Assembly (NCBI GenBank): GCA_963712305.1
Contig: CAVQHI010000002.1
Location: 1,212,836 to 1,276,835 of the forward strand
Direction of reading: 5' to 3'
Source of the DNA: an uncultured bacterium
GTDB taxonomy: Bacteria; Bacteroidota; Rhodothermia; Balneolales; DATFMH01
DNA length: 64,000 nucleotides
Positions within the stretch are counted from its first letter, which is position 1. Every line of letters starts with the position of its first letter. Under the pieces are notes generated by a model. That model did not search any database and was not told the origin of the DNA. It saw nothing but the letters and a program-made list of their open reading frames with translations. Made by a program: the position numbers and the translations under genes. Shown piece after piece: positions 913 through 62,482 of this stretch.

Positions 913-3900
913 ATGAAAAGAAGGACTTTTATTAAGATCGGCGTGGCAGGTGCGGCTACCTTACTTATGCCGATGTCATTTTTGCAGGCTTGCCAAGATA
1001 AAATGGCCAGCGCTTCATTGGATTCAGAATTTTTAAACCCTCCTCATTCTGTAAAGCCTTTTACCTGGTGGCATTGGATGAATGGAAATATTACCGCCGA
1101 TGGTATTACCCGCGACCTGGAATTTCTTCAGAAATCCGGTATCGGTGGGTTCCAGATATTTCAGGTTGGTACCGGCATTCCCAAAGGTCCGGTTGACTTT
1201 GGTGGATCGGAATGGGTACAACTGCTTCAGCATGCTGCAAAAGAGGCAGATCGTCTGGGATTGGAATATGACATGATGAATGCAGGAGGCTGGTCATCAA
1301 GCGGGGGGCCATGGATTACTCCTGAACTATCCATGCAACAACTAACATGGAGTGAAACGTACGTTAAAGGTGGAAAAACAGTCAATGTTACGTTGCCGGA
1401 GCCTTACAAAAAGCTAGATTTCTATCGTGATGCGTTTGTAGTTGCATTTCCGTCGCTGAAAGGAGAAACAAGCTCGATTAAGGACCTGTTGAAAAGTGTT
1501 ACTTCAAGCAAGGGAAAAGAGAATGCTGATTTGATTACTGATAATGACCTTTCTAAGGGAATTGAAGTTCAGGACAGTACAGATGACAAACCGGTGTATT
1601 TACAGCTCGAATTTAAGAAAGTCTATGAGGCACAGTCTGTTACTGCATATATTGAACCGATTAAAGGGCGTTTCGGACGGGGGCCTCAATCAAAGATTAC
1701 ATTACAGGCGTCAGACGACGGGGATCATTTTAGGGATATAAGTGAAATCAATCAACCAAGATGGAGACGTAATTCAATCGAAGTTCCGGGAACGGCCCGG
1801 TTTTCACCTGTAAAAGCAAAATATTTTCGTATCAATGCACCTATAGGAAGCCGGTTTCTCCAGGTCGGGTTATCAGGTGCTTCAAGAATTGTGGACTGGC
1901 CGGTTAAAGCGAATTTTACTCCTCGTGGAAAGATAACTGCCGGTGAACAATTGCTGCCAACGGATACTGTACCAGAAGGCTCAGTGGTTGATCCTGATCA
2001 GGTTATCGATATAACCAAACATATGAACGATCAGGGACAGCTAAACTGGGAGGCTCCGGAAGGTAACTGGACCATATTACGCATGGGTCATACTGCGGTT
2101 GGCATTGAAAACCATCCATCACCGGATGGAGGCGGTGGTCTCGAGTGCGATAAGTACAGCGAGAAGGCCTATGATTTTCATTTCAATAAGTTTTTTGGAA
2201 AATTACTTCCTTTCCTTGAATCACTGGGTTCTAAAGGAATGTCTGGTTCTGTTATCGATAGTTATGAAGTAGGAATGCAGACCTGGACAGCAGATTATCC
2301 AAAACAGTTCAAAAATTACAGGGGATACGACATTACGAAATATCTCCCGGCTCTGACAGGAAGAGTTGTGGGAAGCGGTGACATTTCCGACCGTTTCTTG
2401 TGGGACATACGCCGGACAGATGCCGATCTGATGGATGACAAATACTATGGCCGCTTCGCTGAATTATGCCGTAAACACAACATGAAGGCTTATTCAGAAA
2501 CATACAACAACGGGCCATTCGATGAGATCCAGGCCGGGTCGCGAATGGATGTTCCCATGGGGGAATTTTGGGCTGGTCTTGGACAAACCAACGGCGTTTA
2601 TTACAGCATTAAACTATCAAGCTCAATTGGGCACGTTTATGGAAAACCGGTTGTCGCGGCCGAATCATACACCGGCGTTCCCTGGGAAACGAAGTGGCAG
2701 CAGTATCCCTATGCGATGAAAGGAGAAGGGGACTGGATGTATACCCAGGGACTCAACAAGTTTATCTTCCACGTTTACGCCATGCAGCCGCATCCAACTG
2801 CAAAACCTGGCATGACCATGGGGCCGTGGGGCTGGATGCACAGCCGGAATAATACGTGGGCCGACCGGGAAGAGGACTGGCTGGCTTATGTTCAGCGCTG
2901 TCAGTATCTGCTACAGAAAGGTACGGTTGTAGCTGATATCGTTTATTCTGCCGGTGTAGAGATTCCCTCAGATGCACCGGTCTTGCCGGAACAACTGAAC
3001 CCGAGGCCGCCTAAAGGCTATTATTACGATGTCTCGGATGAGAAAGGAATTGTGGATCGAATGAAACCGGATAACGGGCGCATCATGCTGCCTGACGGTA
3101 TGAATTATAAGGTGATTGTACTACCGGATTCCGATAAAATTTCTCTGGAATTACTCCGGAAGGTGCGGGATTTGGTTAACGGTGGTGCGGCGGTTGTCGG
3201 GCCGAGACCGAAACGTACTCCGGGTCTCATGAATTACCAGAAGAACGATGTCGAGATTGGTAAGATAGCCAATGAATTATGGGCCGATCTGGACGGAAAA
3301 AACAAGACGATGCGCAGTTATGGCAGTGGTCATGTTTTCTGGGGCCTTTCGATGGCAGACGTGATGAAGCAGCTGAATATTCTCCCTGATTTCGAATTTA
3401 CTTCCCGTTCAGGTGATGCTCCCATCAATTATATCCATAAGACCATCGATAAGTCCGATGTGTATTTTATAGCCAATCGCCGCCGGCAAACGGAAGACCT
3501 GGTCTGTGCTTTTCGTGTGAAAGGAAAGAAACCGGAATTCTGGGATGCTGAGACTGGCAGGAGGATTCCTGTTGCTGTCTTTGAGACGAGTAATGGCCGG
3601 ACGAAAATACCGGTCAGACTTGGACCGGCAGGCTCGGTTTTTGTTGTATTTCGATCCAAAGCTACTAATAATAGTTTGCGGTCAGTCAGCAAAGATGGTA
3701 AAACTCTTCTTACAACTACAGCATATCCCCAGCCGGAAAAGGGCCGGTACAGCAATGTAAAGAATGATTTTTCAGTTAGCATGTGGGGTAAACCGGACAC
3801 CGAGATTATAATCGGAGACAATGGGGTTAGTAGTTTTACTGCTCCAACGGGGTTTGTTTTCTATCCACCTGATGGGTCAAAACTGTACGGTAAAGGTCAT

Positions 3901-38428: not shown

Positions 38429-38444
38429 ATGTTACCGTTAATAT
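38429..38444 (+). promoter_or_regulatory. LacI-type operator candidate (ATGTTACCGTTAATAT)
   Basis: It is one of five intergenic copies of ATGTTACCG and lies 25-40 nt upstream of the GH29 start on the opposite strand. Confidence 0.45.
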
Positions 38445-38674: not shown

Positions 38675-39694
38675 TTGAATAACCGTATTACAATCCGACA
38701 GATAGCCCGCGAACTTGGTATCTCGGCGATGACCGTATCAAGAGCGTTAAACAATCGATCCAATGTGGATGAAAATACGCGAAAACGTGTTCTCGAGACT
38801 GCAAAGAGTATGGGGTACAGGCCTAACCACATTGCACGTAGTCTTACGACCAAAAGGACATTTACAATTGGCGTGGTTCTTCCAAAAGTATCACATTCCT
38901 TCTTTCCTGATGCTATCAGGGGGATTGAAGAGGTTGCATACCAAAAAGACTATCAGCTGATTCTGACCCACTCATCTGAAGATGCGACGCGTGAGATAAA
39001 AGTTATTGAATCTCTGGTCTCCAAACGGGTTGACGGAATACTCATATCTTCGGCCCGAAATGTCAGGGATCTCAAACATTATAATGAGTTGTTGGAGTCG
39101 AGTTACCCGGTTGTGTTTTTTGACCGCTGGATACCTGGATTGGCCGCCAGTTCCGTGCGCACAAATGATGAGGAATGCGCCCGGCTGATTACGAACCACC
39201 TGATAGAAAAGCATGGCTATCAGAAAATAGCGCACATCAGTGGTCCGGGCAATGTATCTATTGGTGCAGAACGTTTACGGGGATTCAGACGTGCCATGGA
39301 AGAACATCAGCTGGCTATTAATGAAAGCTGGATTGTCGAAGCCGCATTTGATGAAAATACCGGATATGAGGCTACCAAAAAGCTATTGAATCTACCCAAA
39401 GAGGAGCTTCCCCGCGCCATATTTGCAGTAAATGACTCTACCGCTTTTGGAGCCATGGAAGCGATTTATGATGACGAGTTAAGAATACCTGAAGATGTTG
39501 CACTCGTAGGATTTTCTGATGATAAACAAGATAAATTACTCAATCCGCCACTAACGACAGTCCATCAGCCTGCCTACGAAGAAGGGAAGAGAGCAACGCA
39601 GATTCTCATCGACATGATCGAAGGAAAATCAACTACGATTGAGGATGTAATCGTCAAGAGTCATCTTGTAATCCGCAAGTCGTGTGGATGCTAA
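38675..39694 (+). CDS. LacI/GalR-family transcriptional regulator
   Basis: The N-terminal HTH reads ITIRQIARELGISAMTVSRALNN and is followed by a periplasmic-binding-protein-like domain (GVVLP.., DGILIS, FAVNDSTAFGA, VGFSD). The start is apparently TTG, because no in-frame ATG follows the upstream stop at 38657-38659. Confidence 0.9.
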   Translation: MNNRITIRQIARELGISAMTVSRALNNRSNVDENTRKRVLETAKSMGYRPNHIARSLTTKRTFTIGVVLPKVSHSFFPDAIRGIEEVAYQKDYQLILTHSSEDATREIKVIESLVSKRVDGILISSARNVRDLKHYNELLESSYPVVFFDRWIPGLAASSVRTNDEECARLITNHLIEKHGYQKIAHISGPGNVSIGAERLRGFRRAMEEHQLAINESWIVEAAFDENTGYEATKKLLNLPKEELPRAIFAVNDSTAFGAMEAIYDDELRIPEDVALVGFSDDKQDKLLNPPLTTVHQPAYEEGKRATQILIDMIEGKSTTIEDVIVKSHLVIRKSCGC

Positions 39695-41222: not shown

Positions 41223-41383
41223 GATACCCTTCTTTTCGTGTGATGTTACTGATAACATAATTTTTGGAATATAATAAGCTTGATGATGTAATTTGTAAAG
41301 CTTATCAAAGATAAGAATTGCTTTAAATCCTAATCATGATAATATTCCGGTTGAATTTGACCCAATCTAGTTAATAAAAAAAC

Positions 41384-41399
41384 ATGTTACCGCAAACAT
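41384..41399 (+). promoter_or_regulatory. LacI-type operator candidate (ATGTTACCGCAAACAT)
   Basis: The outer ATGTT/AACAT pair is perfectly palindromic around a central CG. It lies in the divergent uxaC/GH92 intergenic region. Confidence 0.45.
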
Positions 41400-44140: not shown

Positions 44141-44155
44141 ATGTTACCGATAACT
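44141..44155 (+). promoter_or_regulatory. LacI-type operator candidate (ATGTTACCGATAACT)
   Basis: GTTAC-CG-ATAAC is a perfect GTTAnCGnTAAC palindrome, 96 nt upstream of the GH28 start. Confidence 0.5.
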
Positions 44156-44250
44156 CCTGTGATTTTTCTGTATCTGTGGAATTAGATCAAAAAGGTTTAT
44201 GAGATTGGTTTAAAATAAAATCGTAAAACCGAATAAAATATAAGGTAAGT

Positions 44251-45931: not shown

Positions 45932-45946
45932 ATGTTACCGATACCA
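45932..45946 (+). promoter_or_regulatory. LacI-type operator candidate (ATGTTACCGATACCA)
   Basis: It shares the 11-mer ATGTTACCGAT with the sites at 44141 and 58516 (minus strand) and lies 32 nt upstream of the GH31 start. Confidence 0.45.
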
Positions 45947-45977
45947 GGTACCATGATTAATTGTAAAAGGATATAAT

Positions 45978-52791: not shown

Positions 52792-52804
52792 AACTCTTAC
52801 CCCT

Positions 52805-52824
52805 AAATCCCCTTAAGGGGATTT
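52805..52824 (+). terminator. Hairpin AAATCCCC-TTAA-GGGGATTT followed by TTGTTGTTG
   Basis: It is a perfect 8-bp stem located 14 nt after the GH3 stop, with a T-rich tail. Confidence 0.65.
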
Positions 52825-52851
52825 TTGTTGTTGAATTTTTCCACGTTTCCT

Positions 52852-53060: not shown

Positions 53061-54320
53061 ATGGACCGCAAAGACTTTATCAAAAAAGCCGGCCTCTTTG
53101 GGGTTGGAAGCACAGTATCATTAGGCTCTATAACAAGAAAAGGCAGCTTTGGAATTCTGTCTGAAAAGGATTCGCAGTCGGACAGGGAGTACTGGATCAG
53201 CGTCATGCGAAAAATATCAGATCCCGTTCTTAATGCATTGTCACAAAGAAAACTGAGAAAGCTGATGCCGGTTGAAACGGTGCCGGGTTCCCATGACGAC
53301 CGAAGGGTGTTTACTCACCTTGAGGCTTTTGGCAGACTTATGACCGGTATCGCTCCATGGCTTGAATTAGGCGTTGACGATTCTGAAGAAGGAAAAATCA
53401 GGACAAAATATATTGATCTCGCGCGGAAGTCTCTGGAAGCCTCTGTTGATCCGAAATCACCGGATTTTCTCAATTTTGATAAAGGCCGCCAGCCGCTGGT
53501 GGATGCCGCATTCCTTGCCCATGCGTTAATTAAAGCACCAAAAGTGCTTTGGGAGAAGTCATCAGATACGACACGCGATAATCTTGTCAAAGCGTTAAAA
53601 TCGAGCCGGACGATTGTTCCCTATCACAGCAACTGGATCCTGTTCAGCGCTATGGTAGAAGCAGCTTTGATGAAGTTTGATGCAGGAGGTGATAAAGTCC
53701 GCATGGATCTGGCGGTTAAACAAATGGATGCCTGGTATCTTGGCGATGGCGTTTATGGCGATGGACCTATGTTCCATTGGGATTATTACAACAGCTATGT
53801 GATTCAGCCCTTCATGCTTGATATTTTGGATGTCATGCGTAATCATGATCATTCATATAATGGGTTATACCAGAAAAACAGGAAAATCAGCCAGCGATAT
53901 GCCGAGCAATTGCTCGGAGTAATCGCTCCGGATGGCACTTACCCGCCGATTGGCAGATCTATTACCTATCGGTTCGGAGCTTTCCAATTACTGGCCCAGG
54001 TGGCGTGGGAACAATTTCTTCCCGAAAGAATGTCTCCCGCTCAGGTTCGGTCTGCTTTGACGGCTGTCATCAAAAAAATTATGGAAGCACCGGACAATTT
54101 TGATAAAAACGGATGGCTCCAACTTGGCGTTTACGGTCACCAGCCCCACCTGGCCGAGACCTACATTTCAACAGGAAGTTTGTATTTATGTTCAGCTGCT
54201 TTTCTGCCACTTGGTTTAAAACCCGATGATGTGTTTTGGGCCGGGAAAGAATCCGACTGGAGAACGAAGGAAATATGGAAAGGAAAGGATATCCCTGCAG
54301 ATCATCACCTGAATGTGTAG
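53061..54320 (+). CDS. DUF2264-like protein (uncharacterised PUL-associated; possibly a glycoside hydrolase)
   Basis: The leader MDRKDFIKKAGLFGVGS is Tat-like. REYWISVMRKISDPVL, DGTYPPIGRSITYRFGAF and YISTGSLYLC resemble what I recall of DUF2264 (PF10022) proteins. This is not verified. Confidence 0.5.
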   Translation: MDRKDFIKKAGLFGVGSTVSLGSITRKGSFGILSEKDSQSDREYWISVMRKISDPVLNALSQRKLRKLMPVETVPGSHDDRRVFTHLEAFGRLMTGIAPWLELGVDDSEEGKIRTKYIDLARKSLEASVDPKSPDFLNFDKGRQPLVDAAFLAHALIKAPKVLWEKSSDTTRDNLVKALKSSRTIVPYHSNWILFSAMVEAALMKFDAGGDKVRMDLAVKQMDAWYLGDGVYGDGPMFHWDYYNSYVIQPFMLDILDVMRNHDHSYNGLYQKNRKISQRYAEQLLGVIAPDGTYPPIGRSITYRFGAFQLLAQVAWEQFLPERMSPAQVRSALTAVIKKIMEAPDNFDKNGWLQLGVYGHQPHLAETYISTGSLYLCSAAFLPLGLKPDDVFWAGKESDWRTKEIWKGKDIPADHHLNV

Positions 54321-54494
54321 ATCGGTTGAGAGCCGATTCCTATTAAATGATTGAGCACTCCGGTTTCAATTATATCTCGATATCGCTTTGTCTATGTTAG
54401 CGTTAAAAAGTAAATTCGGGTTAGTTCTCGCAGAGTAACGCGGATGACACGCTGAGTTTCTCAGATATTAGAGATTAATGAATCCATTTACAGA

Positions 54495-55820
54495 ATGCCT
54501 GATATCCTGAAAGATGATTTTGTTATTACAGATGTCCATGTAAAGGATATCCGCTTTCCAACATCCAGGAACCTGGATGGATCGGATGCCATGAACCCGG
54601 AGCCGGACTATTCGGCGACTTATGTCATTCTTCAGACGAATAGGGATGATCATTTGGAAGGGCATGGCCTGGCTTTCACCGTTGGCAGGGGGAATGAAAT
54701 CTGTGTGAAAGCGGTCGAGGCCCTGATACCGTTTGTGAAGGGCCGGTCGATGAAATCCATCCTGTTGGATATGGCAGGGTTTTGGCATACGCTTACAGGC
54801 GATAGCCAGATACGGTGGCTGGGACCGGAGAAAGGAGCGGTTCACATGGCCGCTGCGGCCGTCATCAATGCTGTCTGGGACTTGTATGCTAAAATCTTGG
54901 GTAAGCCACTTTGGAAGGTACTGGTGGATATGACGCCGGAGGAATTGATCTCTTGTATCGATTTCAGTTATATCAGGGATGCCCTCGATGAAGATGAAGC
55001 CCTCGAAATCCTGAAGAAGAACACCGCTTCGAAAGCTGCAAGGGAAAAAAATATCCGCGAGAAAGGATACCCGGCCTATACTACTTCCATCGGCTGGCTA
55101 GGATATTCTGATGATAAGGTCCGCCGTTTATGCAGGGAAGCACTAGCTGAGGGCTGGACCAGTTTCAAGATGAAAGTGGGCAGTAATGTAGACGACGATA
55201 TCCGGCGTGCGAAAATCATCAGGGAAGAAATTGGCTATGATCATAAACTGATGATGGATGCCAACCAGAAATGGGGAATTGAAGAGGCGATCTCTTACAT
55301 GAAGCAGCTTGCCGAATTCAAACCTCACTGGATTGAAGAACCCACCAGTCCAGACGAAATACTTGGACATGCCGCGATAAGAAAGGCCCTGTCACCTATC
55401 GGAGTGGCTACGGGCGAGCATGTGCACAACCGTATCATGTTCAAGCAGTTGTTTCAGGCCAATGCCATAGATTTTTGTCAGATCGATAGCTGCCGTCTTG
55501 CCGGTGTTAATGAAGTTGTAGCCGTTCTGCTGATGGCAGCGAAATTTGGCATTCCGGTGTGTCCGCATGCCGGTGGTGTGGGACTCTGCGAGTATGTGCA
55601 GCATCTCTCCATATTTGACTACATTGCAGTAAGTGGTTCACTTGAGAACCGCATGATCGAATATGTGGATCATCTGCATGAACATTTTTTTGATCCGGTA
55701 GATATTGAACAAGGTCATTATATGGCTCCTGATAAACCCGGATACAGTATCACCATGAAAACTGAAACATTGAAAGCCTACGAATTTCCAGTAGGTAAAA
55801 TCTGGAAGGAAGAAAAATAA
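54495..55820 (+). CDS. fucD: L-fuconate dehydratase (enolase superfamily)
   Basis: There is a near-continuous match to my memory of Xanthomonas FucD: DVRFPTSR.LDGSDAMNP.PDYSA.YV, LRWLGPEKG, GYPAYTTS.GWLGYSD, FK.KVG, DANQ.W, WIEEPTSPD..LGHA, STGEH and HAGGVGLCE.VQHL. Confidence 0.92.
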   Translation: MPDILKDDFVITDVHVKDIRFPTSRNLDGSDAMNPEPDYSATYVILQTNRDDHLEGHGLAFTVGRGNEICVKAVEALIPFVKGRSMKSILLDMAGFWHTLTGDSQIRWLGPEKGAVHMAAAAVINAVWDLYAKILGKPLWKVLVDMTPEELISCIDFSYIRDALDEDEALEILKKNTASKAAREKNIREKGYPAYTTSIGWLGYSDDKVRRLCREALAEGWTSFKMKVGSNVDDDIRRAKIIREEIGYDHKLMMDANQKWGIEEAISYMKQLAEFKPHWIEEPTSPDEILGHAAIRKALSPIGVATGEHVHNRIMFKQLFQANAIDFCQIDSCRLAGVNEVVAVLLMAAKFGIPVCPHAGGVGLCEYVQHLSIFDYIAVSGSLENRMIEYVDHLHEHFFDPVDIEQGHYMAPDKPGYSITMKTETLKAYEFPVGKIWKEEK

Positions 55821-56662
55821 TGAAGCTTGCCACTCTGAAGGACGGCCGGTTGGTTGCTGTTTCAGATAATCAATTTGTAGCACTCGAAAAAGTTGGTTTT
55901 GAAGGAACCATGCTTGACCTCATTCGCGCCGGCAACGGGAAATTAGAGAGTATGGCAGATTTCCTCAGATACGTCACGGAAATGGAATCACTGGAAATTG
56001 AGGAACTGGATGCTCCACTGCAAAATCCTTCTAAAATTGTGGCGATCGGACTGAACTATGTCGATCATGCCTCAGAGTCAAAGATGGAACTACCGAAGTC
56101 GCCCCTGGTCTTTACCAAGTTTCCAAGCTCAATAACATCACCATTCGGACCGATTCTGATACCGATGAATCTTACCAATGAAGTTGATTATGAGGCTGAA
56201 TTGGGTGTTGTTGTTGGCAAAGGAGCTAAGAATATATCTCTGAAGGATGCTCTATCCTATGTATTTGGATATACCGTACTGAATGATGTGTCGGCACGTG
56301 ATCTGCAGTTTGGTGATCAGCAGTGGGTGCGGGGTAAATCTCTTGACACGTTTTGTCCAATGGGTCCGTACGTGGTTACTGCTGATGAAATTCCGGATCC
56401 TCAGAATCTTGAAATAGGATGCAGCGTCAATGGAGAAACGCTTCAAGATGCTAACACACGTGATATGATCTTCAAAGTTGCAGATCTCATATCTCAGTTA
56501 TCTCACTCCTTCACACTCGAGCCGGGTGATATAATAGCCACAGGTACACCGAGCGGCGTTGGATTCAGCAGGAAACCGCCAGTGTTACTCAAACCGGGTG
56601 ATATTGTTAAAACCTGGGTTAAAGGAATCGGTGAATTAGTTAATCCTGTTAAGAAAGCGTAA
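55820..56662 (+). CDS. Fumarylacetoacetate hydrolase-family protein; 2,4-diketo-3-deoxy-L-fuconate hydrolase by context
   Basis: FAH motifs are present: NYVDHA, PLVFTKF, DYEAELGVVVGK, GYTVLNDVSARDLQ, KSLDTFCPMGP and GDIIATGTPSGVG. Its start overlaps the fucD stop (TAATG). Confidence 0.8.
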   Translation: MKLATLKDGRLVAVSDNQFVALEKVGFEGTMLDLIRAGNGKLESMADFLRYVTEMESLEIEELDAPLQNPSKIVAIGLNYVDHASESKMELPKSPLVFTKFPSSITSPFGPILIPMNLTNEVDYEAELGVVVGKGAKNISLKDALSYVFGYTVLNDVSARDLQFGDQQWVRGKSLDTFCPMGPYVVTADEIPDPQNLEIGCSVNGETLQDANTRDMIFKVADLISQLSHSFTLEPGDIIATGTPSGVGFSRKPPVLLKPGDIVKTWVKGIGELVNPVKKA

Positions 56663-56667
56663 ATGAT

Positions 56668-57423
56668 ATGGACAGATTAAAAGGAAAACGTACGATTGTA
56701 ACAGGTGCGGCATCGGGCATCGGCAAAGCGATCGCCAAACGGTTTATTGAAGAAGGAGCGAAAGTTCTGGTTCTTGATGTTAATCCGGACACAGCCGCGC
56801 AGACGGCAAAAGAACTTGGTAGTAACGCTACTGCTATGTCGGTCGATGTCACGAATGCAAGCCAGGTAGAAGCTGCTGTCAAGAAGGCAAATGAAGAATG
56901 GGGAGGTATCGACGTCATTGTTAATAATGCGGGTGTGGGCGTTGCAGCAAAAACCGCCGAAACATCTGAGAACGACTGGCAACGAGTGATCGATGTGTGT
57001 ATGAAAGGGACCTTCCTTGGAATGAAGTACGTCATTCCCGTTATGCAAAAGCAGAAAAGCGGTTCTATAATCAACATGTCGTCTGTTGCGGCGCTTGTAG
57101 GTGTCGGTGACCGCGCAGCTTACTGTGCAGCGAAGGGCGGAGTCATGGCCTTAACAAGAGCGGCAGCTGTCGATCATGCCGGCGATGGTATTCGCGTGAA
57201 CTGTATTGCACCAGGTACAGTCGATACACCCTGGGTTCAGCGAATTACACAGGGGTATGATGATCCGGAAGCGGCGCGCACGGCAATGAAGGCGCGTCAG
57301 CCCCACGGACGCCTTGTCAAACCCGAGGAAGTAGCTGCCATGGCCGTATACCTGGCATCCGATGAAGCCGGCTCAACAAACGGTGCCGTAATGGTGGTAG
57401 ATGGTGGCTGGACCGCGAGGTAA
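56668..57423 (+). CDS. SDR oxidoreductase; 2-keto-3-deoxy-L-fuconate 4-dehydrogenase by context
   Basis: It has TGAASGIGKA, NNAG, the S..YCAAKGG catalytic motif, and PGTVDTP. Confidence 0.7.
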   Translation: MDRLKGKRTIVTGAASGIGKAIAKRFIEEGAKVLVLDVNPDTAAQTAKELGSNATAMSVDVTNASQVEAAVKKANEEWGGIDVIVNNAGVGVAAKTAETSENDWQRVIDVCMKGTFLGMKYVIPVMQKQKSGSIINMSSVAALVGVGDRAAYCAAKGGVMALTRAAAVDHAGDGIRVNCIAPGTVDTPWVQRITQGYDDPEAARTAMKARQPHGRLVKPEEVAAMAVYLASDEAGSTNGAVMVVDGGWTAR

Positions 57424-57576
57424 GATTTGGGAAGCGGTCAGTCGGTTGCTACATAGGAGCCCCCCGGACAAACCGTCAGGCCGCCATCTGAATGTTAGAT
57501 TTCACTTTTTGGTCTCTCTTTTAGATGGAATAGGTTCCCATTATTCCATGAATTCTGGGTTAAACAGCAAGTTCTA

Positions 57577-57599
57577 ATGAATTAGTTCTAAAGCAGATT
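57577..57599 (+). promoter_or_regulatory. 23-nt element ATGAATTAGTTCTAAAGCAGATT immediately upstream of lutA
   Basis: About 20/23 positions repeat at 58479-58500 upstream of lutB (ATGAATTAGT-CTAATGAAGATT). Its first 11 nt also occur upstream of rhaI. Confidence 0.35.
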
Positions 57600-57604
57600 T
57601 AATA

Positions 57605-58336
57605 ATGCGCATATCCCTTTTTATCACGTGTTTCAACGACACCATGTTTCCGGAGACGGGCAAGGCCACAGTTAAACTACTGGAGCGACTTGGTCATGAA
57701 GTAGATTTCCCGCTTGAGCAGACCTGCTGCGGACAAATGCACTTCAATACGGGTTATCAACAGGAAACAATCCCGCTTGTACGCCACTTTGTAGATGTCT
57801 TTGCAGACGCCGAAGTGGTTGTCGCTCCATCGGCTTCCTGTGTTGGAATGGTTCGTGAGTTTTACCCGCGTGTCGCAGAATTATCCAATGATGAGGAATT
57901 GCAGATAGCAGTGTCCAAATTGATTCCAAAAGTGTATGAATTATCGGAATTCCTGATTAACAAACTTGGAATCGAAGATGTCGGCGCCTACTATCCACAC
58001 AGGGTTACCTACCATCCGACGTGTCATTCTCTTCGCGTGCTTCATGTTGGGGATGCCCCGCTACGTTTGCTTAAACATGTGAAAGGCATCGATCTCATAG
58101 AATTGCCTGCAGCAGAAGAGTGCTGTGGATTTGGTGGCACGTTTGCTGTGAAGAATGCCGAGACGTCCATGGCAATGCTCGGTGATAAAATTTGCCATGT
58201 TAGAGAAACGGAAGCTGAGAAATGCACAGCATGTGATAATTCGTGCCTAATGCACATTGGTGGTGGACTAAGCCGACAGCGAGCGGGTGTTGAACCTGTA
58301 CATCTGGCTGAAATACTGGCCTCGACTGAGGAGTGA
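57605..58336 (+). CDS. lutA: Lactate utilisation protein A (CCG-domain Fe-S oxidoreductase)
   Basis: It has two cysteine-rich CCG motifs (EQTCCGQ, ECCGFGG), starts with MRISLFITCFND as LutA/YkgE proteins do, and is followed by lutB and lutC. Confidence 0.88.
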   Translation: MRISLFITCFNDTMFPETGKATVKLLERLGHEVDFPLEQTCCGQMHFNTGYQQETIPLVRHFVDVFADAEVVVAPSASCVGMVREFYPRVAELSNDEELQIAVSKLIPKVYELSEFLINKLGIEDVGAYYPHRVTYHPTCHSLRVLHVGDAPLRLLKHVKGIDLIELPAAEECCGFGGTFAVKNAETSMAMLGDKICHVRETEAEKCTACDNSCLMHIGGGLSRQRAGVEPVHLAEILASTEE

Positions 58337-58382
58337 TGACGACTAATAGTTTGTTTTTGCAAAACTGGAGTTCTTGTCATGC

Positions 58383-58423
58383 GGGGGCCAATCCCCCTAA
58401 CCCCCTTCGCCAGGGGGGAATTT
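58383..58423 (+). repeat. Twin G5/C5 hairpin element in the lutA-lutB spacer
   Basis: The sequence is GGGGGccaatCCCCCtaaCCCCCttcgccaGGGGGGaattt. The segment CCCCTAA-CCCCCTT..GGGG.ATTT parallels the 52801-52824 hairpin (CCCCTAAATCCCCTTAAGGGGATTT). Confidence 0.55.
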
Positions 58424-58501
58424 CGGCATTGAGACAAGTTTTGATCGGTTTTTTCCTTAGAAAATTTTAAATCATTTCATGAATTAGTCTAATGAAGATT
58501 G

Positions 58502-58516
58502 TTCCATCGGTAACAT
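58502..58516 (-). promoter_or_regulatory. LacI-type operator candidate (minus-strand ATGTTACCGATGGAA)
   Basis: The plus strand reads TTCCATCGGTAACAT. This is the fifth intergenic ATGTTACCG copy, about 90 nt upstream of lutB. Confidence 0.4.
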
Positions 58517-58604
58517 CTTGGATCTTTTACTCCCCATTAGAAAAGGGGGCTGGGGAGATTGAAAAGCGTAATCATAGTATCTCAGCGGTGAAAAAGGAGA
58601 TTAA

Positions 58605-60035
58605 ATGAGCACTCAGAACAACGGAAACATTACTTTTGAAGAATCGGCTCAGTCGTACCTGTCGAATACACAGCTCCGGCGGAATATCGGTCATGCTACA
58701 CACACTATCCGTATGAAGCGGGCTACGGTTGTCGGTGAAATGACCGATTGGGAAGAGTTGCGTGAAGCCGGCAGGTCGATTAAAAGCCATACTCTCAGAC
58801 ATCTGGATCATTACCTCCTGAAACTGGAAGAGTCGGTGATAGGTGCAGGTGGTCAGGTGCATTGGGCTCGCAACGGTGCAGAGGCAAATCAAATTGTAAC
58901 ATCGCTGGTGAAAGAGCATAACGTTTCAGAAGTGGTGAAAATGAAATCCATAACCACTGATGAGATTGGTCTTAATGATGCGCTTGAAAAAGAAGGTATC
59001 AAACCCATCGAAACTGATCTGGCAGAGCTCATTGTTCAGTTAGCCGAAGATACACCGTCACATATCCTGGTCCCTGCCATTCATAAAAACCGGGCGGAAA
59101 TCAGAGAGTTATTTCGTCGCACGATCGGTAGTAAAGATCTAACCGATCAGCCGGCCGAGCTTGCTGAAACGGCACGAAAGTATCTGCGTCAAAAATTTCT
59201 GAGTGCGAAAGTTGGAATCAGCGGAGCTAATTTTGCAGTAGCTGAAACGGGAACAGTGTCGGTTGTTGAATCAGAGGGCAACGGACGCATGTGTACGACG
59301 CTTCCGGAAGTGCTGATAAGTATTATGGGGATTGAAAAAATCATCCCTTCATGGCGTGATTTTGAAGTTTTTATGCAATTGCTTCCAAGATCATCGACCG
59401 CTGAACGAATGAATCCGTATAACTCATTTTGGACAGGCGTTACGAAAGGTGACGGACCCCAGGAGTTTCATCTTGTTTTGATGGATAATGGAAGAACAAA
59501 TGTGCTTGCCGATGAAATTGGGCGACAAACATTACAATGTATTCGCTGCAGCGCTTGCCTGAATGTTTGTCCGGTATATGAACGAACGGGTGGACATGCC
59601 TATCATTCAGTTTATCCGGGACCCATTGGTGCTATACTGACACCGCAGCTGAAGGGTCTTGATAAAAAAGGTCCGGCATCATTGCCTTATGCATCGAGCT
59701 TATGTGGAGCCTGTTATGAGGTTTGCCCGGTTAAGATCAATATCCCGGAAGTCCTGGTCCATCTCAGGGGGAAGATCGTTGATAGAAAAGAAAAAGAGGG
59801 AACAATAGGAGAAAAGCTGGATCCGGAACATGTTGCACTCAAGTATCTTTCGAGAGCTTTCACAAACCGTAAGAAATATGAACGTGTACAAAGGCTTGCG
59901 CAGAAAGGCCAGATGCTTTTTGTTAAAAATGGAACAATCTCACATTTGCCTGGCAAGTTGTCAGGTTGGTCGGCCATGCGTGATTTGAAACCCATCCCCA
60001 AAGAATCATTTCGTGACTGGTGGAGGAACCGATGA
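58605..60035 (+). CDS. lutB: Lactate utilisation protein B (LUD domain + 2x[4Fe-4S])
   Basis: It has the ferredoxin motifs CIRCSACLNVCPVY and CGACYEVCPVKI and a LUD/DUF162 region (ISGANFAVAETGTV..ESEGNGR). Confidence 0.9.
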   Translation: MSTQNNGNITFEESAQSYLSNTQLRRNIGHATHTIRMKRATVVGEMTDWEELREAGRSIKSHTLRHLDHYLLKLEESVIGAGGQVHWARNGAEANQIVTSLVKEHNVSEVVKMKSITTDEIGLNDALEKEGIKPIETDLAELIVQLAEDTPSHILVPAIHKNRAEIRELFRRTIGSKDLTDQPAELAETARKYLRQKFLSAKVGISGANFAVAETGTVSVVESEGNGRMCTTLPEVLISIMGIEKIIPSWRDFEVFMQLLPRSSTAERMNPYNSFWTGVTKGDGPQEFHLVLMDNGRTNVLADEIGRQTLQCIRCSACLNVCPVYERTGGHAYHSVYPGPIGAILTPQLKGLDKKGPASLPYASSLCGACYEVCPVKINIPEVLVHLRGKIVDRKEKEGTIGEKLDPEHVALKYLSRAFTNRKKYERVQRLAQKGQMLFVKNGTISHLPGKLSGWSAMRDLKPIPKESFRDWWRNR

Positions 60036-60697
60036 TGAATGCTGCAAAAGAAGAAATACTCACCAGGATTCGATTGGCACTAAAGGATGTGCCGCAGGAT
60101 GAAAATCCGGACGAATTACCCGAATTGCGTAGTTATCGAACGACTAGTAATGCGCCGCAGGAGAATCTCTGGTTGTTTGCTGAACGGGTTGGTGATTACA
60201 AGGCGGAAGTCACAAAAGTCAGTGCTGACCAATTGCCTGCTATCATTAAGGATCATCTGAGACTGCATGACATTAAGAGACTGGTTGTGCCCGACGGTAT
60301 TTCAGATGAGTGGTTGCCTGAAGATGTCGATTTGCTTAGGGACAATAAAGACAATCCACTGACACATTCCCAATTGGATAACAGCGATGGGGTTTTAACG
60401 GGTTGTGCCATAGCCGTCGCTCAGACCGGTTCGATTGTGTTAGACAGCGGAAAAGGTCAGGGACGCAGGGTCTTAACATTGCTTCCCGATTATCACTTGT
60501 GTGTAGTTTTTGAAGAACAAATTGTAGGCATCGTGCCGGAAGCCTTTGAGAAATTAAATGACGAGATGACAACAGATGGCCCCCCGGTAACATTTATTTC
60601 CGGTCCATCGGCAACCTCCGATATCGAGCTGAATCGGGTTGAGGGTGTTCATGGTCCGCGACAGCTGGATGTGATTATTGTTGGTAAAAGTACTTAG
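60032..60697 (+). CDS. lutC: Lactate utilisation protein C (LUD domain)
   Basis: The ATG at 60032 overlaps the lutB stop (ATGA); the ORF is tracked from GTG 60020. It has ILTRIR.., GVLTGCAIAVAQTGSIVL and HLCVV....IV, which are typical of LutC/YkgG. Confidence 0.85.
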   Translation: MMNAAKEEILTRIRLALKDVPQDENPDELPELRSYRTTSNAPQENLWLFAERVGDYKAEVTKVSADQLPAIIKDHLRLHDIKRLVVPDGISDEWLPEDVDLLRDNKDNPLTHSQLDNSDGVLTGCAIAVAQTGSIVLDSGKGQGRRVLTLLPDYHLCVVFEEQIVGIVPEAFEKLNDEMTTDGPPVTFISGPSATSDIELNRVEGVHGPRQLDVIIVGKST

Positions 60698-60751
60698 GGG
60701 TGCCTAAAGTACTTAAAGTTGATTAGTAAACATGGGTAACAGAGACGAAAT

Positions 60752-61588
60752 ATGCCGAAGGTAGATGCCCATCAACATTTCTGGAAATATAGTCCGGATA
60801 ATTATGGATGGATAAACAATGATATGTCCATTCTCAAAGAAGACTATCTTCCGGATAAATTGCAGGTTCATTTAGAGAAAAATGGTTTCGACGGTTGTGT
60901 TGCTGTTCAGGCTCGCCAGAATGAAGAAGAGAATGATTTTCTATTGGGACTTGCTGATGAATTTCCATTTATTAAAGGCGTTGTCGGCTGGGTAGATTTG
61001 CAGGCTGATAATGTCGAAGAGCGATTAGAGGCATTGTCCCAAAATCCGAAGATATGTGGACTAAGACACCTTGTTCAGGATGAACGGGATGACAGGTTTT
61101 TGTTGAGGAAGAAATTCGTGCGAGGAGTTAAAAGCCTGAAGAAGTTCAATCTTTGTTACGATATCCTGATTTTCCCAAAGCACCTCTCGGTTGCTAAAGA
61201 GTTAGTAAAGCAGTGTCCCGATCAAAAATTTGTAGTTGATCACATAGCCAAACCTATTGTTAAAGATGGGATAATTGAACCTTGGGCAAGAGGAATCAGA
61301 AGGATTGCGCTGCATCCGAATATATGCTGCAAGATATCCGGTATGGTTACCGAAGCGAGATGGCATCAATGGAAGAAAGAGGATTTCAGGCCTTACTTAG
61401 ATGTGATTTTTGATGCATTCGGTACAGAGAGGATAATGATAGGATCAGACTGGCCGGTCTGCAAGTTGTCGGCCGAATATGACGATGTGATTGGAATAGT
61501 GACGGAATACATATCGCAATTGTCTTTCGACGAACAGGAGAATATTATGGGAGGCAATGCCGTACGGTTTTACAATCTTAAGGTTTGA
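60752..61588 (+). CDS. Amidohydrolase-2 family protein; L-fucono-1,5-lactonase by context
   Basis: It has the N-terminal metal motif VDAHQHFW, VDHIAKP and MIGSDWPV. The ~280-aa length is typical of sugar-lactonase members of the amidohydrolase superfamily. Confidence 0.75.
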   Translation: MPKVDAHQHFWKYSPDNYGWINNDMSILKEDYLPDKLQVHLEKNGFDGCVAVQARQNEEENDFLLGLADEFPFIKGVVGWVDLQADNVEERLEALSQNPKICGLRHLVQDERDDRFLLRKKFVRGVKSLKKFNLCYDILIFPKHLSVAKELVKQCPDQKFVVDHIAKPIVKDGIIEPWARGIRRIALHPNICCKISGMVTEARWHQWKKEDFRPYLDVIFDAFGTERIMIGSDWPVCKLSAEYDDVIGIVTEYISQLSFDEQENIMGGNAVRFYNLKV

Positions 61589-61610
61589 ATTTATAAAGGC
61601 TGATTTGAAT

Positions 61611-61632
61611 GGATAAATCCCCGTGTTTATCC
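61611..61632 (+). terminator. Hairpin GGATAAA-tccccgtg-TTTATCC after the lactonase gene
   Basis: It has a 7-bp stem and lies 23 nt after the stop at 61588. It is weak and lacks a strong U-tract. Confidence 0.3.
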
Positions 61633-61696
61633 TACCGCGTATTTAGTAAGTTTCTGAACACCGTAAGCATCCAACAAAATTAAGAGGAAAATCACA

Positions 61697-62482
61697 ATGG
61701 ATCTTCATCTTAAAGACAAGATCATAATCGTAACCGGCGGTGCAGGGTTGCCTGGAAGTATTGGGGAAACAATCGTACGAAGCATTGCCGGTGAAGGTGG
61801 TATCCCTGTGATTATCGATAAAGACCAGCGTGGTGAATCATTTGCGGCATCACTTAAGGATGAGGACAAGGATTGCCTTTTTGTTCAGGCGGATCTTACC
61901 GAGGCCTACGATTGCAAGAGAAGTGTTGAAAAAACAATTTCGACTTACGGCAGGATTGATGGCTTGGTAAATAATCTCGGAGTGAATGATGGGATCGGAC
62001 TGAATCGCAGCTGCGAGGATTTTATCGATTCACTCAAGCTCAACCTGGTCCATTTTTTTGCCATGACCAAATATAGTGCAGACGCACTGGAAAAATCGAA
62101 AGGGTCTATTGTGAATATAGCATCTAAGGTCGCTGTGACCGGTCAGGGTGGGACCTCAGGATATGCTGCAGCAAAGGGTGGGGTGTTGGCGCTGACCCGT
62201 GAATGGGCCGTTGATCTTCATGAAGCTGGCATCAGGGTGAATGCGATGGTCATCAGCGAGTCATGGACACCGGGATACAGGGAGTGGATTCAGAAATTTG
62301 ACGAGCCGGAAGGAAAGCTTATCTCAATAACAAAGAAGATTCCGCTTGAACACCGAATGACAAAACCGGAAGAAATTGCGGATGCCGTTTTGTTTTTACT
62401 CTCCGATCGCTCTTCACATACAACCGGGCAACATGTTTACGTGGATGGCGGGTATGTCCATTTGGATCGGGCCATTTCCTGA
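61697..62482 (+). CDS. SDR oxidoreductase; L-fucose 1-dehydrogenase by context
   Basis: It has VTGGAGLPGSIG (a Rossmann motif with an insertion), NNLG, S..YAAAKGG, and adjacency to the lactonase gene. Confidence 0.6.
   Translation: MDLHLKDKIIIVTGGAGLPGSIGETIVRSIAGEGGIPVIIDKDQRGESFAASLKDEDKDCLFVQADLTEAYDCKRSVEKTISTYGRIDGLVNNLGVNDGIGLNRSCEDFIDSLKLNLVHFFAMTKYSADALEKSKGSIVNIASKVAVTGQGGTSGYAAAKGGVLALTREWAVDLHEAGIRVNAMVISESWTPGYREWIQKFDEPEGKLISITKKIPLEHRMTKPEEIADAVLFLLSDRSSHTTGQHVYVDGGYVHLDRAIS

Follow-up and report, generated by a model that had tools for sequence, protein, structure and literature searches.

A 268-bp insertion between lutA and lutB in an uncultured Balneolales bacterium: probable scar of a hairpin-bracketed DUF559 nuclease cassette

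Short palindromic repeats with a coding partner have been described as repetitive extragenic palindromic (REP) sequences, bacterial interspersed mosaic elements (BIMEs) and REP doublets forming hairpins (REPINs), together with the genes for REP-associated tyrosine transposases (RAYTs) (Nunvar 2010; Bertels and Rainey 2011; PMC3116915, PMC3337134). DUF559 (COG2852, PF04480) is a very large protein family of unknown function whose members usually bear the label 'very short patch repair endonuclease', and a survey of PD-(D/E)XK nucleases gives the clade only as Vsr repair enzymes plus one intron homing endonuclease. Here, we analysed the spacer that separates lutA from lutB in a 64,000-nt stretch of DNA (the window; assembly GCA_963712305.1, contig CAVQHI010000002.1) from an uncultured bacterium, which its LutA homologues place in the Balneolales, the nearest named relatives being Fodinibius and Rhodohalobacter at about 80% identity. 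We found that this spacer is a hairpin-containing repeat module that flanks DUF559 genes at the same site in sister genomes, and that it is probably the scar of a selfish cassette encoding a DUF559 (Vsr-like PD-(D/E)XK) endonuclease, which would have entered the lutA-lutB junction in an ancestor of the lineage.

A derived insertion at the lutA-lutB junction

We read the loci of close LutA homologues (L numbers) for the length of the lutA-lutB gap. The two genes stood 2 bp apart in L086 and L087, 3 bp in L085 (Rhodohalobacter sp. 614A), 13 bp in L005 and L006 (LutA 92%) and 52 bp in L007 (Fodinibius sediminis), and none of these gaps held any content. Gaps of 266 bp in L003 (LutA 95%) and of 268 bp in the window and in two metagenome contigs with the identical spacer sequence (L001 and L002) held a solo module, and the 827-bp gap of L004 (LutA 93%) held the series module-DUF559-module. 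The lutA-lutB gap is likewise occupied by a DUF559 gene in L020/L074 (a Balneolales metagenome-assembled genome, MAG), L075 and L084, whose contigs stop short of the full gap; four closer lineages thus carry a DUF559 (Vsr-like) endonuclease gene of 160-167 aa at this junction. Because the more distant Balneolales relatives have 2-52 bp here, the spacer is a derived insertion. Its left border is the lutA stop codon, and both the 5' junction past this stop and the 3' breakpoint (...CGTAATCATAG) are common to the window, L003 and L004, with the 5' and 3' junction sequences of the module shared with L084 as well. A first-pass annotation of the window had suggested an inserted repeat element and a comparison of lutA-lutB spacing in related genomes. 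This comparison yielded empty, solo and filled junctions, and the suggestion is borne out by the short gaps of the distant relatives and by the recurrence of the module in sister genomes. The annotation was also right about its coordinates, the 268-bp spacer and the ATGA overlap of lutB with lutC, which starts at 60032.

The module, about 200 bp long, was defined by aligning the window spacer with L003 and three L004 copies, and it runs from an inner arm through the hairpins H1, an AT-rich linker, a leader opening with ATG (58492) and the hairpin H2 to a second inner arm (Table 1). An nhmmer profile built from five copies, the window copy included, matched window positions 58357-58579 with E = 7e-50. 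H1 and H2 represent one motif in opposite orientations, CAATCCCCC..CCCCCTT-loop-GGGGG, with the conserved tag CAATC / GATTG; positions 58389-58419 and 58531-58561, 111 nt apart, show 74% complementarity over 31 nt (repeat I1). At filled junctions, H2 is found directly 5' of the DUF559 gene, whose last codons are formed by H1. Terminal inverted repeats (TIRs) thus enclose the gene, and a whole module stands on each side of it in both lineages that can be read on both sides (L004 and L020). The spacer module is homologous to these modules that flank DUF559 genes at the same site. The first-pass annotation had listed twin hairpins with a flanking inverted repeat and a separate CTCCCC/GGGGAG hairpin, and both are present: H1 has its outer flanking repeat, CTTGTCATGC (58373-58382) / GCATTGAGACAAG (58426-58438), which is not conserved among relatives, and H2 has its arms at 58530-58535 (CTCCCC) and 58552-58557 (GGGGAG), within a strongly conserved motif. 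Since they match the right and left TIRs, these features are the two ends of a DUF559 cassette; in the spacer they are turned towards each other, and between them is the linker that normally parts successive cassettes.

The inner arms correspond to the two ends of the DUF559 gene. By tblastn, the C-terminus of the L004 DUF559 protein matched window 58353-58421 with 52% identity over 23 aa (E = 0.036), a homology also backed by the module alignment and by inverted-repeat extension in L084b; H1, if within an open reading frame (ORF), would read NPPNPLRQGG. At the other end, the inner arm past H2 is 88% identical to the 5' coding sequence of the L075 DUF559 gene, and its breakpoint recurs in L003 and where the L004 spacer ends. 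The ATG leader opens a relic ORF that compares with the DUF559 N-termini MITTVSLITTRVFFSPLEKGAGGIEGRNQ..., passes through H2 and ends in a TGA overlapping the lutB ATG (ATGA). A leader ORF ending at the lutB start is also found in L004 and L020 and is missing in L003 (2-nt deletion). This arrangement suggests possible translational coupling, an argument weakened by the two of three reading frames that end at the lutB start anyway. Neither this 38-aa ORF (58492-58608) nor a 45-aa ORF (58333-58470) was accepted as a gene, as no Pfam family was found for them.

Our search for other modules and for an intact DUF559 gene in the source organism covered the 64-kb window. It returned no second full module with the profile and no second full copy with the exact twin-hairpin sequence or with looser G5/C5 patterns. 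The window holds no DUF559 coding remnant besides the two ends, and the nuclease gene is absent from it. In sister genomes, the module is repeated up to four times within an 8.7-kb or a 2.7-kb stretch. In L003, the second hairpin of H1 holds a nested perfect palindrome with an 8-bp stem (TCCCGAATGTATTCGGGA, L003 4790-4815), which looks like a second small palindromic insertion.

Table 1. Features of the lutA-lutB junction and of the surrounding fucose cluster (window coordinates).
Feature	Coordinates	Strand	Remarks
lutA	57605..58336	+	243 aa, CCG-domain Fe-S subunit; from ORF list
lutA-lutB spacer	58337..58604	+	268 bp; lineage-specific insertion, nearly all one repeat module
Inner arm of right-hand inverted repeat (AAAACTGGAGTTCTTGTCATGC)	58361..58382	+	homologous to last DUF559 codons in relatives
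H1, twin G5/C5 hairpins	58383..58418	+	GGGGGCCAATCCCCC / CCCCCTTCGCCAGGGGGG; matches right terminal inverted repeat (TIR_R) of DUF559 cassette
AT-rich linker	58419..58491	+	about 35% identity to other modules, not conserved; holds first 13 nt of the 23-nt 'near-copy'
Relic leader ORF	58492..58608	+	38 aa, MKIVPSVTSWIFYSPLEKGAGEIEKRNH...; homologous to 5' end of DUF559 ORFs
LacI-type half-site	58501..58516	-	ATGTTACCGATGGAAC; left half exact, symmetric half poor
H2 (CTCCCCATTAGAAAAGGGGGCTGGGGAGATTG)	58530..58561	+	matches left terminal inverted repeat (TIR_L) of DUF559 cassette; reverse-complement relative of H1
Inner arm of TIR_L (AAAAGCGTAATCATAG)	58562..58577	+	matches first codons past H2 in DUF559 genes (IE.RNH)
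lutB Shine-Dalgarno (AAGGAG, strong) and start codon	58594..58607	+	from window/L003/L004/L020 junction alignment
lutB	58605..60035	+	476 aa; right border of insertion; TIGR00273 LutB/LldF 481.8 bits, above curated cut-off
Fuconate-dehydratase-like enolase	54495-55820		fucose cluster
FAH-family hydrolase	55820-56662		fucose cluster
SDR	56668-57423		fucose cluster
L-fucono-1,5-lactonase	60752-61588		fucose cluster
L-fucose dehydrogenase	61697-62482		fucose cluster

DUF559 is the sole gene of the cassette, in which no transposase domain was found with Pfam, and its product matches PF04480 (100-109 bits), PDB 3hrl (9e-12) and PDB 3r3p, the homing endonuclease I-Bth0305I (0.005). The DUF559 cores at the junction have ratios of nonsynonymous to synonymous divergence (dN/dS) of 0.05-0.11, and between L004 and L020 the dS is 1.40, against 1.03 for lutB. 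Since dN/dS is low and dS is similar to that of lutB, the gene has long been resident and functional here, which indicates prolonged vertical residence under purifying selection. In the lutBC tree, the solo L003 nests within the DUF559-bearing clade (L004, L020; bootstrap 92-94%), and in the lutA tree the window is sister to the DUF559-bearing L075 (88.5%). The most economical history is one old insertion, after which the window lineage and L003 separately lost the nuclease core. On the 2.7-kb contig of L084, two DUF559 paralogues (516-1010 and 2101-2595; dS 0.54, dN/dS 0.10) flank lutA, each with a module on both sides; one of them lies between the SDR gene and lutA, where L004 has a solo module (3709-3898).

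We propose that the DUF559 cassette would have entered the lutA-lutB junction in an ancestor of this Balneolales lineage, and that the nuclease gene would then have been lost in the window lineage, leaving one module behind. The likely route of loss is recombination or single-strand annealing between two directly repeated modules, comparable to the formation of a solo long terminal repeat (LTR); a single remaining module is what such recombination would produce. The lutABC genes would still be transcribed through the spacer, as judged from the lack of promoter and terminator consensus and from the Shine-Dalgarno sequence that lutB keeps as its own. The conserved hairpins may still serve a DUF559 nuclease encoded elsewhere, or the host as REP-like mRNA hairpins, and the relic leader ORF stopping on the lutB ATG may help ribosomes to reach lutB. 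Several observations weigh against this proposal. The insertion-free L005 is not cleanly resolved as an outgroup (bootstrap 62% or lower), the two modules flanking the L004 gene are about 67% identical and hence not recent duplicates of each other, and the 64-kb window that was searched holds only one full module. Moreover, the ends of the element and a target-site duplication are not definable, since L005 and the filled sites differ also at the lutB start. With L005 so placed and the L004 modules so diverged, a single gain followed by losses is not strictly separable from repeated gains at a hot spot.

Alternatively, the module came alone as a non-autonomous element similar to a REPIN or a miniature inverted-repeat transposable element (MITE), no DUF559 gene was ever present here, and DUF559 later entered pre-existing modules elsewhere. 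Solo modules do occur at other sites, as in L004 (3709-3898, between SDR gene and lutA), copies of the H2 motif that stand alone are about ten times as frequent across phyla as DUF559-linked ones, and the module is an inverted repeat pair, as is a REPIN. However, the site of that L004 solo module holds an intact DUF559 cassette in L084, the DUF559 gene at the junction diverges in step with lutB under purifying selection, the window's sister L075 has the gene together with a nearly identical H1, and the window module has kept its inner arms, with which the DUF559 ORF overlaps at either end. We consider a lone arrival unlikely.

Hairpin conservation and regulatory-looking motifs

Between the window and its relatives, the synonymous sites of lutB are saturated (proportion of synonymous differences, pS, 0.74-0.75). 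H1 has a mean identity of 79% to ten other modules and of 92% to the H1 of L075, and the full-length H2 copies of relatives are 81-91% identical to the window H2; both hairpins are conserved well above the neutral expectation, at 77-92% overall. Since H1 and H2 were kept while the linker is only about 35% identical and the lutB synonymous sites are saturated, something preserves the hairpins, which could be host-level selection or gene conversion with other copies. The predicted fold energies are -20.9 kcal/mol for H1, -29.2 for H1 with its flanks and -11.2 for H2, and these folds are unexceptional for their composition (z -0.5 to -1.6 against dinucleotide shuffles). With z-scores this modest, the case for H1 rests on its conservation in homologous modules and not on folding energy. 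The fold of the whole spacer (z = -0.24) gave no sign of one large structured RNA, and an Rfam scan of 57300-58800 with E up to 10 returned only noise, all far below the gathering scores; the SCARNA7, CRISPR-DR47, snoRNA and miRNA models were rejected on these scores, and no known RNA family was assigned.

One alternative account of this conservation is that the host keeps the hairpins as REP-like RNA, with the 3' hairpin protecting or partly terminating the lutA message and so setting the LutA:LutBC ratio. H1 lies 47 nt past the stop codon of lutA, with a fold energy of -21 to -29 kcal/mol, and H1 and H2 are conserved despite the loss of the nuclease gene and the saturated synonymous sites. 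A short relative of the hairpin motif (ACCCCTAAATCCCCTTAAGGGGATTTTTG, 52799-52830), directly past the GH3 gene and followed by a T-run, looks like an intrinsic terminator, which would fit such a use. However, no intrinsic terminator was found in 58337-58604: the spacer has no terminator-like site and no T-tract past H1 or H2, the sequence directly past H1 being AATTTCGG. Moreover, the folding z-scores are unremarkable, gene conversion with other copies could equally explain the conservation, and the relatives that lack the spacer evidently manage with tight lutA-lutB coupling. We judge this account improbable; it is compatible with the cassette-scar origin of the spacer.

The first-pass annotation had further described a near-copy of the 23-nt element upstream of lutA and an inverted LacI-type site in the spacer, and had raised from these a duplicated promoter-operator cassette or an internal regulatory node. 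The 23-nt match exists (58479-58500 against 57577-57599; 20/23 positions, one gap), but it is indistinguishable from chance, as its local-alignment score of 16 was reached by 4.9% of dinucleotide shuffles and four other intergenic regions of the window scored 17-19 against the spacer; it was therefore rejected as evidence of promoter duplication. Part of the match (CTAATGAAGATT) aligns with the ATG-leader of other modules. The LacI-type site is likewise present with one exact half, the 11-mer ATGTTACCGAT on the minus strand at 58506-58516 being identical to intergenic sites at 44141 and 45932, but it has no symmetric partner (3/8 symmetric positions). It scores 7.9 bits versus 19-20 for the strong sites, which ranks it about 23rd in the window, and matches of equal score exist in coding sequence. 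Homologous modules in L003, L004, L020, L075 and L084 all lack this site; the homologous box in the modules of relatives, as read from the module alignment, is GTCACTGATAAC, identical to the 11-mer at 7/11 positions. We regard the spacer 11-mer as chance or as a very recent half-site.

A LacI-family regulator is encoded at 38675-39694, and the motif ATGTTACCG is enriched in intergenic DNA, with 5 matches in 6.5 kb. Scored with a symmetrised matrix, 16-bp sites of the type ATGTTACCGnTAACAT reach 19-20 bits at 38429-38444, 41243-41258, 41384-41399, 44141-44156 and 45932-45947, and 12.6 bits at 54394-54409; they lie upstream of, or overlap the start of, the fucosidase/lacI, uxaC, GH92, GH28-like, GH31 and fuconate dehydratase genes, and together with the regulator they form a probable LacI-family regulon. 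The weaker site (AATGTTAnCGTTAAAAAG), which precedes the fuconate dehydratase gene, is also conserved in L003 (at 753), L004 (at 504) and L005 (at 1883), and it probably serves the fucose-lut operon as its operator. A sigma-70-type promoter was sought on the + strand of the spacer and not found, the sole match being on the minus strand. Neither strand of the spacer carries TAnnTTTG, the Bacteroidetes -7 motif, although this is a weak test, as the phylum's promoter type is not established here and the motif is not clearly enriched in the organism's intergenic DNA.

These findings leave the duplicated promoter-operator cassette without support: the 23-nt match is at chance level, the lone half-site does not occur in relatives, the operator lies elsewhere and there is no promoter consensus. 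An internal regulatory node, with an internal promoter and a LacI-type operator at 58506-58516 that let lutBC be expressed apart from lutA, could draw on the identity of ATGTTACCGAT to two intergenic sites upstream of glycoside-hydrolase genes, on the encoded regulator with its enriched motif, and on a conceivable outward promoter in a linker homologous to the region that must drive DUF559 in relatives, but it is very unlikely given a half-operator that coding matches equal and relatives' modules lack, an operon operator conserved in front of the fuconate dehydratase gene, a + strand without either promoter type and no sequence feature specifically in its support. The spacer is thus not to be read as a regulatory innovation, and lutABC is best annotated as one operon with an element scar.

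The lutABC genes lie inside a non-phosphorylative L-fucose catabolic cluster (53061-62482; Table 1), and the fucose-lut gene order is common to L003, L004 and L005. Because the hydrolase step of the pathway yields L-lactate, LutABC would oxidise the pathway's own product. LutA, called with PF02754, has its best matches among the LdhH C-terminal and GlpC-like families, and the Shine-Dalgarno/start region of lutB is retained in every module-bearing relative.

DUF559 genes and hairpin repeats across phyla

The pattern CCCCNTTAGAAAANGGGGCNGGGG, which matches window 58532-58555, was found at 66 loci in a one-genome-per-species GTDB scan (L008-L073), spread over Planctomycetota, Bacteroidota, Nitrospirota, Desulfobacterota-like MAGs, Calditrichota, Ignavibacteria and Balneolales. 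Between these distant phyla the 24-nt H2 motif hardly differs, and one Candidatus Anammoxibacter MAG has it at 17 loci, inside a longer repeated element. Most of the loci are solo hairpins, which outnumber the DUF559-linked ones about ten to one. A DUF559 gene is present at 7/66 loci and abuts the motif in five or six, a placement far above the chance expectation. A metagenome scan with a DUF559 protein gave 7 loci, too few for a census.

An inverted-repeat test was then applied to thirteen DUF559 genes from several phyla (35-100% amino-acid identity). Ten of the thirteen (L004, L020, L022, L026, L076-L080 and L084) are flanked by hairpin-containing inverted repeats of 25-66 nt (z 4.7 to 13.6; 0/300 shuffles). 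These repeats vary between lineages, yet on the left and right of any one gene they co-vary, and the lineage variants keep the stem with both sides changed, as in CCCCCTT/AAGGGGG, CCCCCCTCTTAT/ATAAGAGGGGG and CCCTCCCCG/CGGGGAGGG. In a Fodinibius sp. MAG (L081, 2200-3400), a DUF559 gene lying between the prephenate dehydratase and exonuclease VII genes is ringed by arrays of alternating motif variants, much like BIMEs, with compensatory stem changes (CTTCCTT/AAGGAAG replacing CCCCCTT/AAGGGGG). In a Bacteroidales MAG (L026, 2177-2434), a DUF559 ORF is directly preceded by the H2 motif in seven tandem 39-bp units, which translate as SPLEKGAGGIDSS repeats in one long open frame.

Many of the 120 DUF559 proteins taken from databases (P0121-P0240) end in tails such as PLTPPSPRKRGEGD or SPRPPSPRGS, and Pro/Gly-rich extensions occur at both N- and C-termini, for example EKWPLTPPSPRKRGEGD, DNMPSPSPSRRREGSLW and TPTPDPSPQGGGE. 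Such tails are most likely translated flanking hairpins, that is, annotation artefacts, and hairpin read-through would account for the tails of many DUF559 entries. It is possible, and we put it forward tentatively, that a widespread, as yet undescribed family of REP-like hairpins has DUF559 genes for its coding partners, as a functional analogue of the RAYT/REPIN pair built on a Vsr-fold nuclease, in which the spacer would be a non-autonomous member with its hairpins kept by a DUF559 nuclease encoded elsewhere. The family so conceived would range over Balneolales, Bacteroidota, Planctomycetota, Nitrospirota, Alphaproteobacteria and others, with ..SPLEKGAGG.. and ..NPPxPLxxGG.. tails in protein databases. 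In the searchable literature (full text), we found no description of an association between DUF559 and repeats. The co-varying hairpin brackets, the polymorphism of the site, the long purifying selection and the solo repeats around the genes point away from a repair enzyme and towards a nuclease associated with repeats, selfish or domesticated. The spacer alone is of modest interest, and the association of DUF559 with hairpins is the part worth following; the lutA-lutB junction offers natural filled, solo and empty alleles for testing it.

Comparison with known systems

Operators of LacI-family regulators are palindromes of about 16 bp with a central CG, and the spacer site has an identical left half (ATGTTACC) to that of the strong sites in the local regulon. 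Unlike such operators, its right half matches at 3/8 symmetric positions and has no conservation in relatives. In the malE-malF interval of E. coli, intercistronic REP hairpins tune operon expression, and the spacer similarly places stable hairpins right past the upstream cistron of an operon, a likeness drawn here from sequence evidence.

Free-standing homing endonuclease genes resemble the cassette in being small nuclease genes that are present or absent at a fixed site, and the Vsr-like EDxHD family (I-Bth0305I, PDB 3r3p) shares the fold at distant sequence similarity. Unlike homing endonuclease genes, DUF559 sits in intergenic DNA between hairpin repeats rather than within introns, inteins or conserved target genes, and its long vertical residence with dN/dS near 0.1 differs from a fast homing cycle.

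Scars of the solo-LTR and MITE type share with this locus a polymorphism in which one chromosomal site is filled, solo or empty depending on the related genome. As with a solo LTR, the solo copy is one of two direct repeats flanking a coding part, and as with a MITE, the terminal inverted repeats (H1/H2, the ends of the DUF559 cassette) are shared with a coding partner. Unlike these scars, the locus involves no transposase or reverse transcriptase and has no definable target-site duplication, and the direct repeats of L004 have diverged (about 67% identity) and so were not created identical at insertion.

REP and REPIN sequences, like H1 and H2, are short G+C-rich imperfect palindromes in intergenic DNA that fold as hairpins, and they too form inverted doublets with a linker between. 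As in the REP/RAYT pair, one protein-coding gene is flanked by inverted repeats and inherited vertically under purifying selection, and solo copies far outnumber the gene-linked ones. REP sequences reach high copy numbers; here we count one full module and the short relative at 52799-52830 in 64 kb, and 17 loci in the Anammoxibacter MAG. At about 110 nt, the two halves of the doublet stand farther apart than those of typical REPINs, neither GTAG nor CGTC tags the ends of H1 and H2, and the partner gene encodes a DUF559/Vsr-fold PD-(D/E)XK nuclease in place of the IS200/IS605-type HUH tyrosine transposase of RAYTs. Taken together, the arrangement works most like a REP/REPIN system with its RAYT gene but departs from it in two defining respects, the type of gene and the tag, and we class the spacer as an operon-borne repeat-element scar whose partner gene is unusual.

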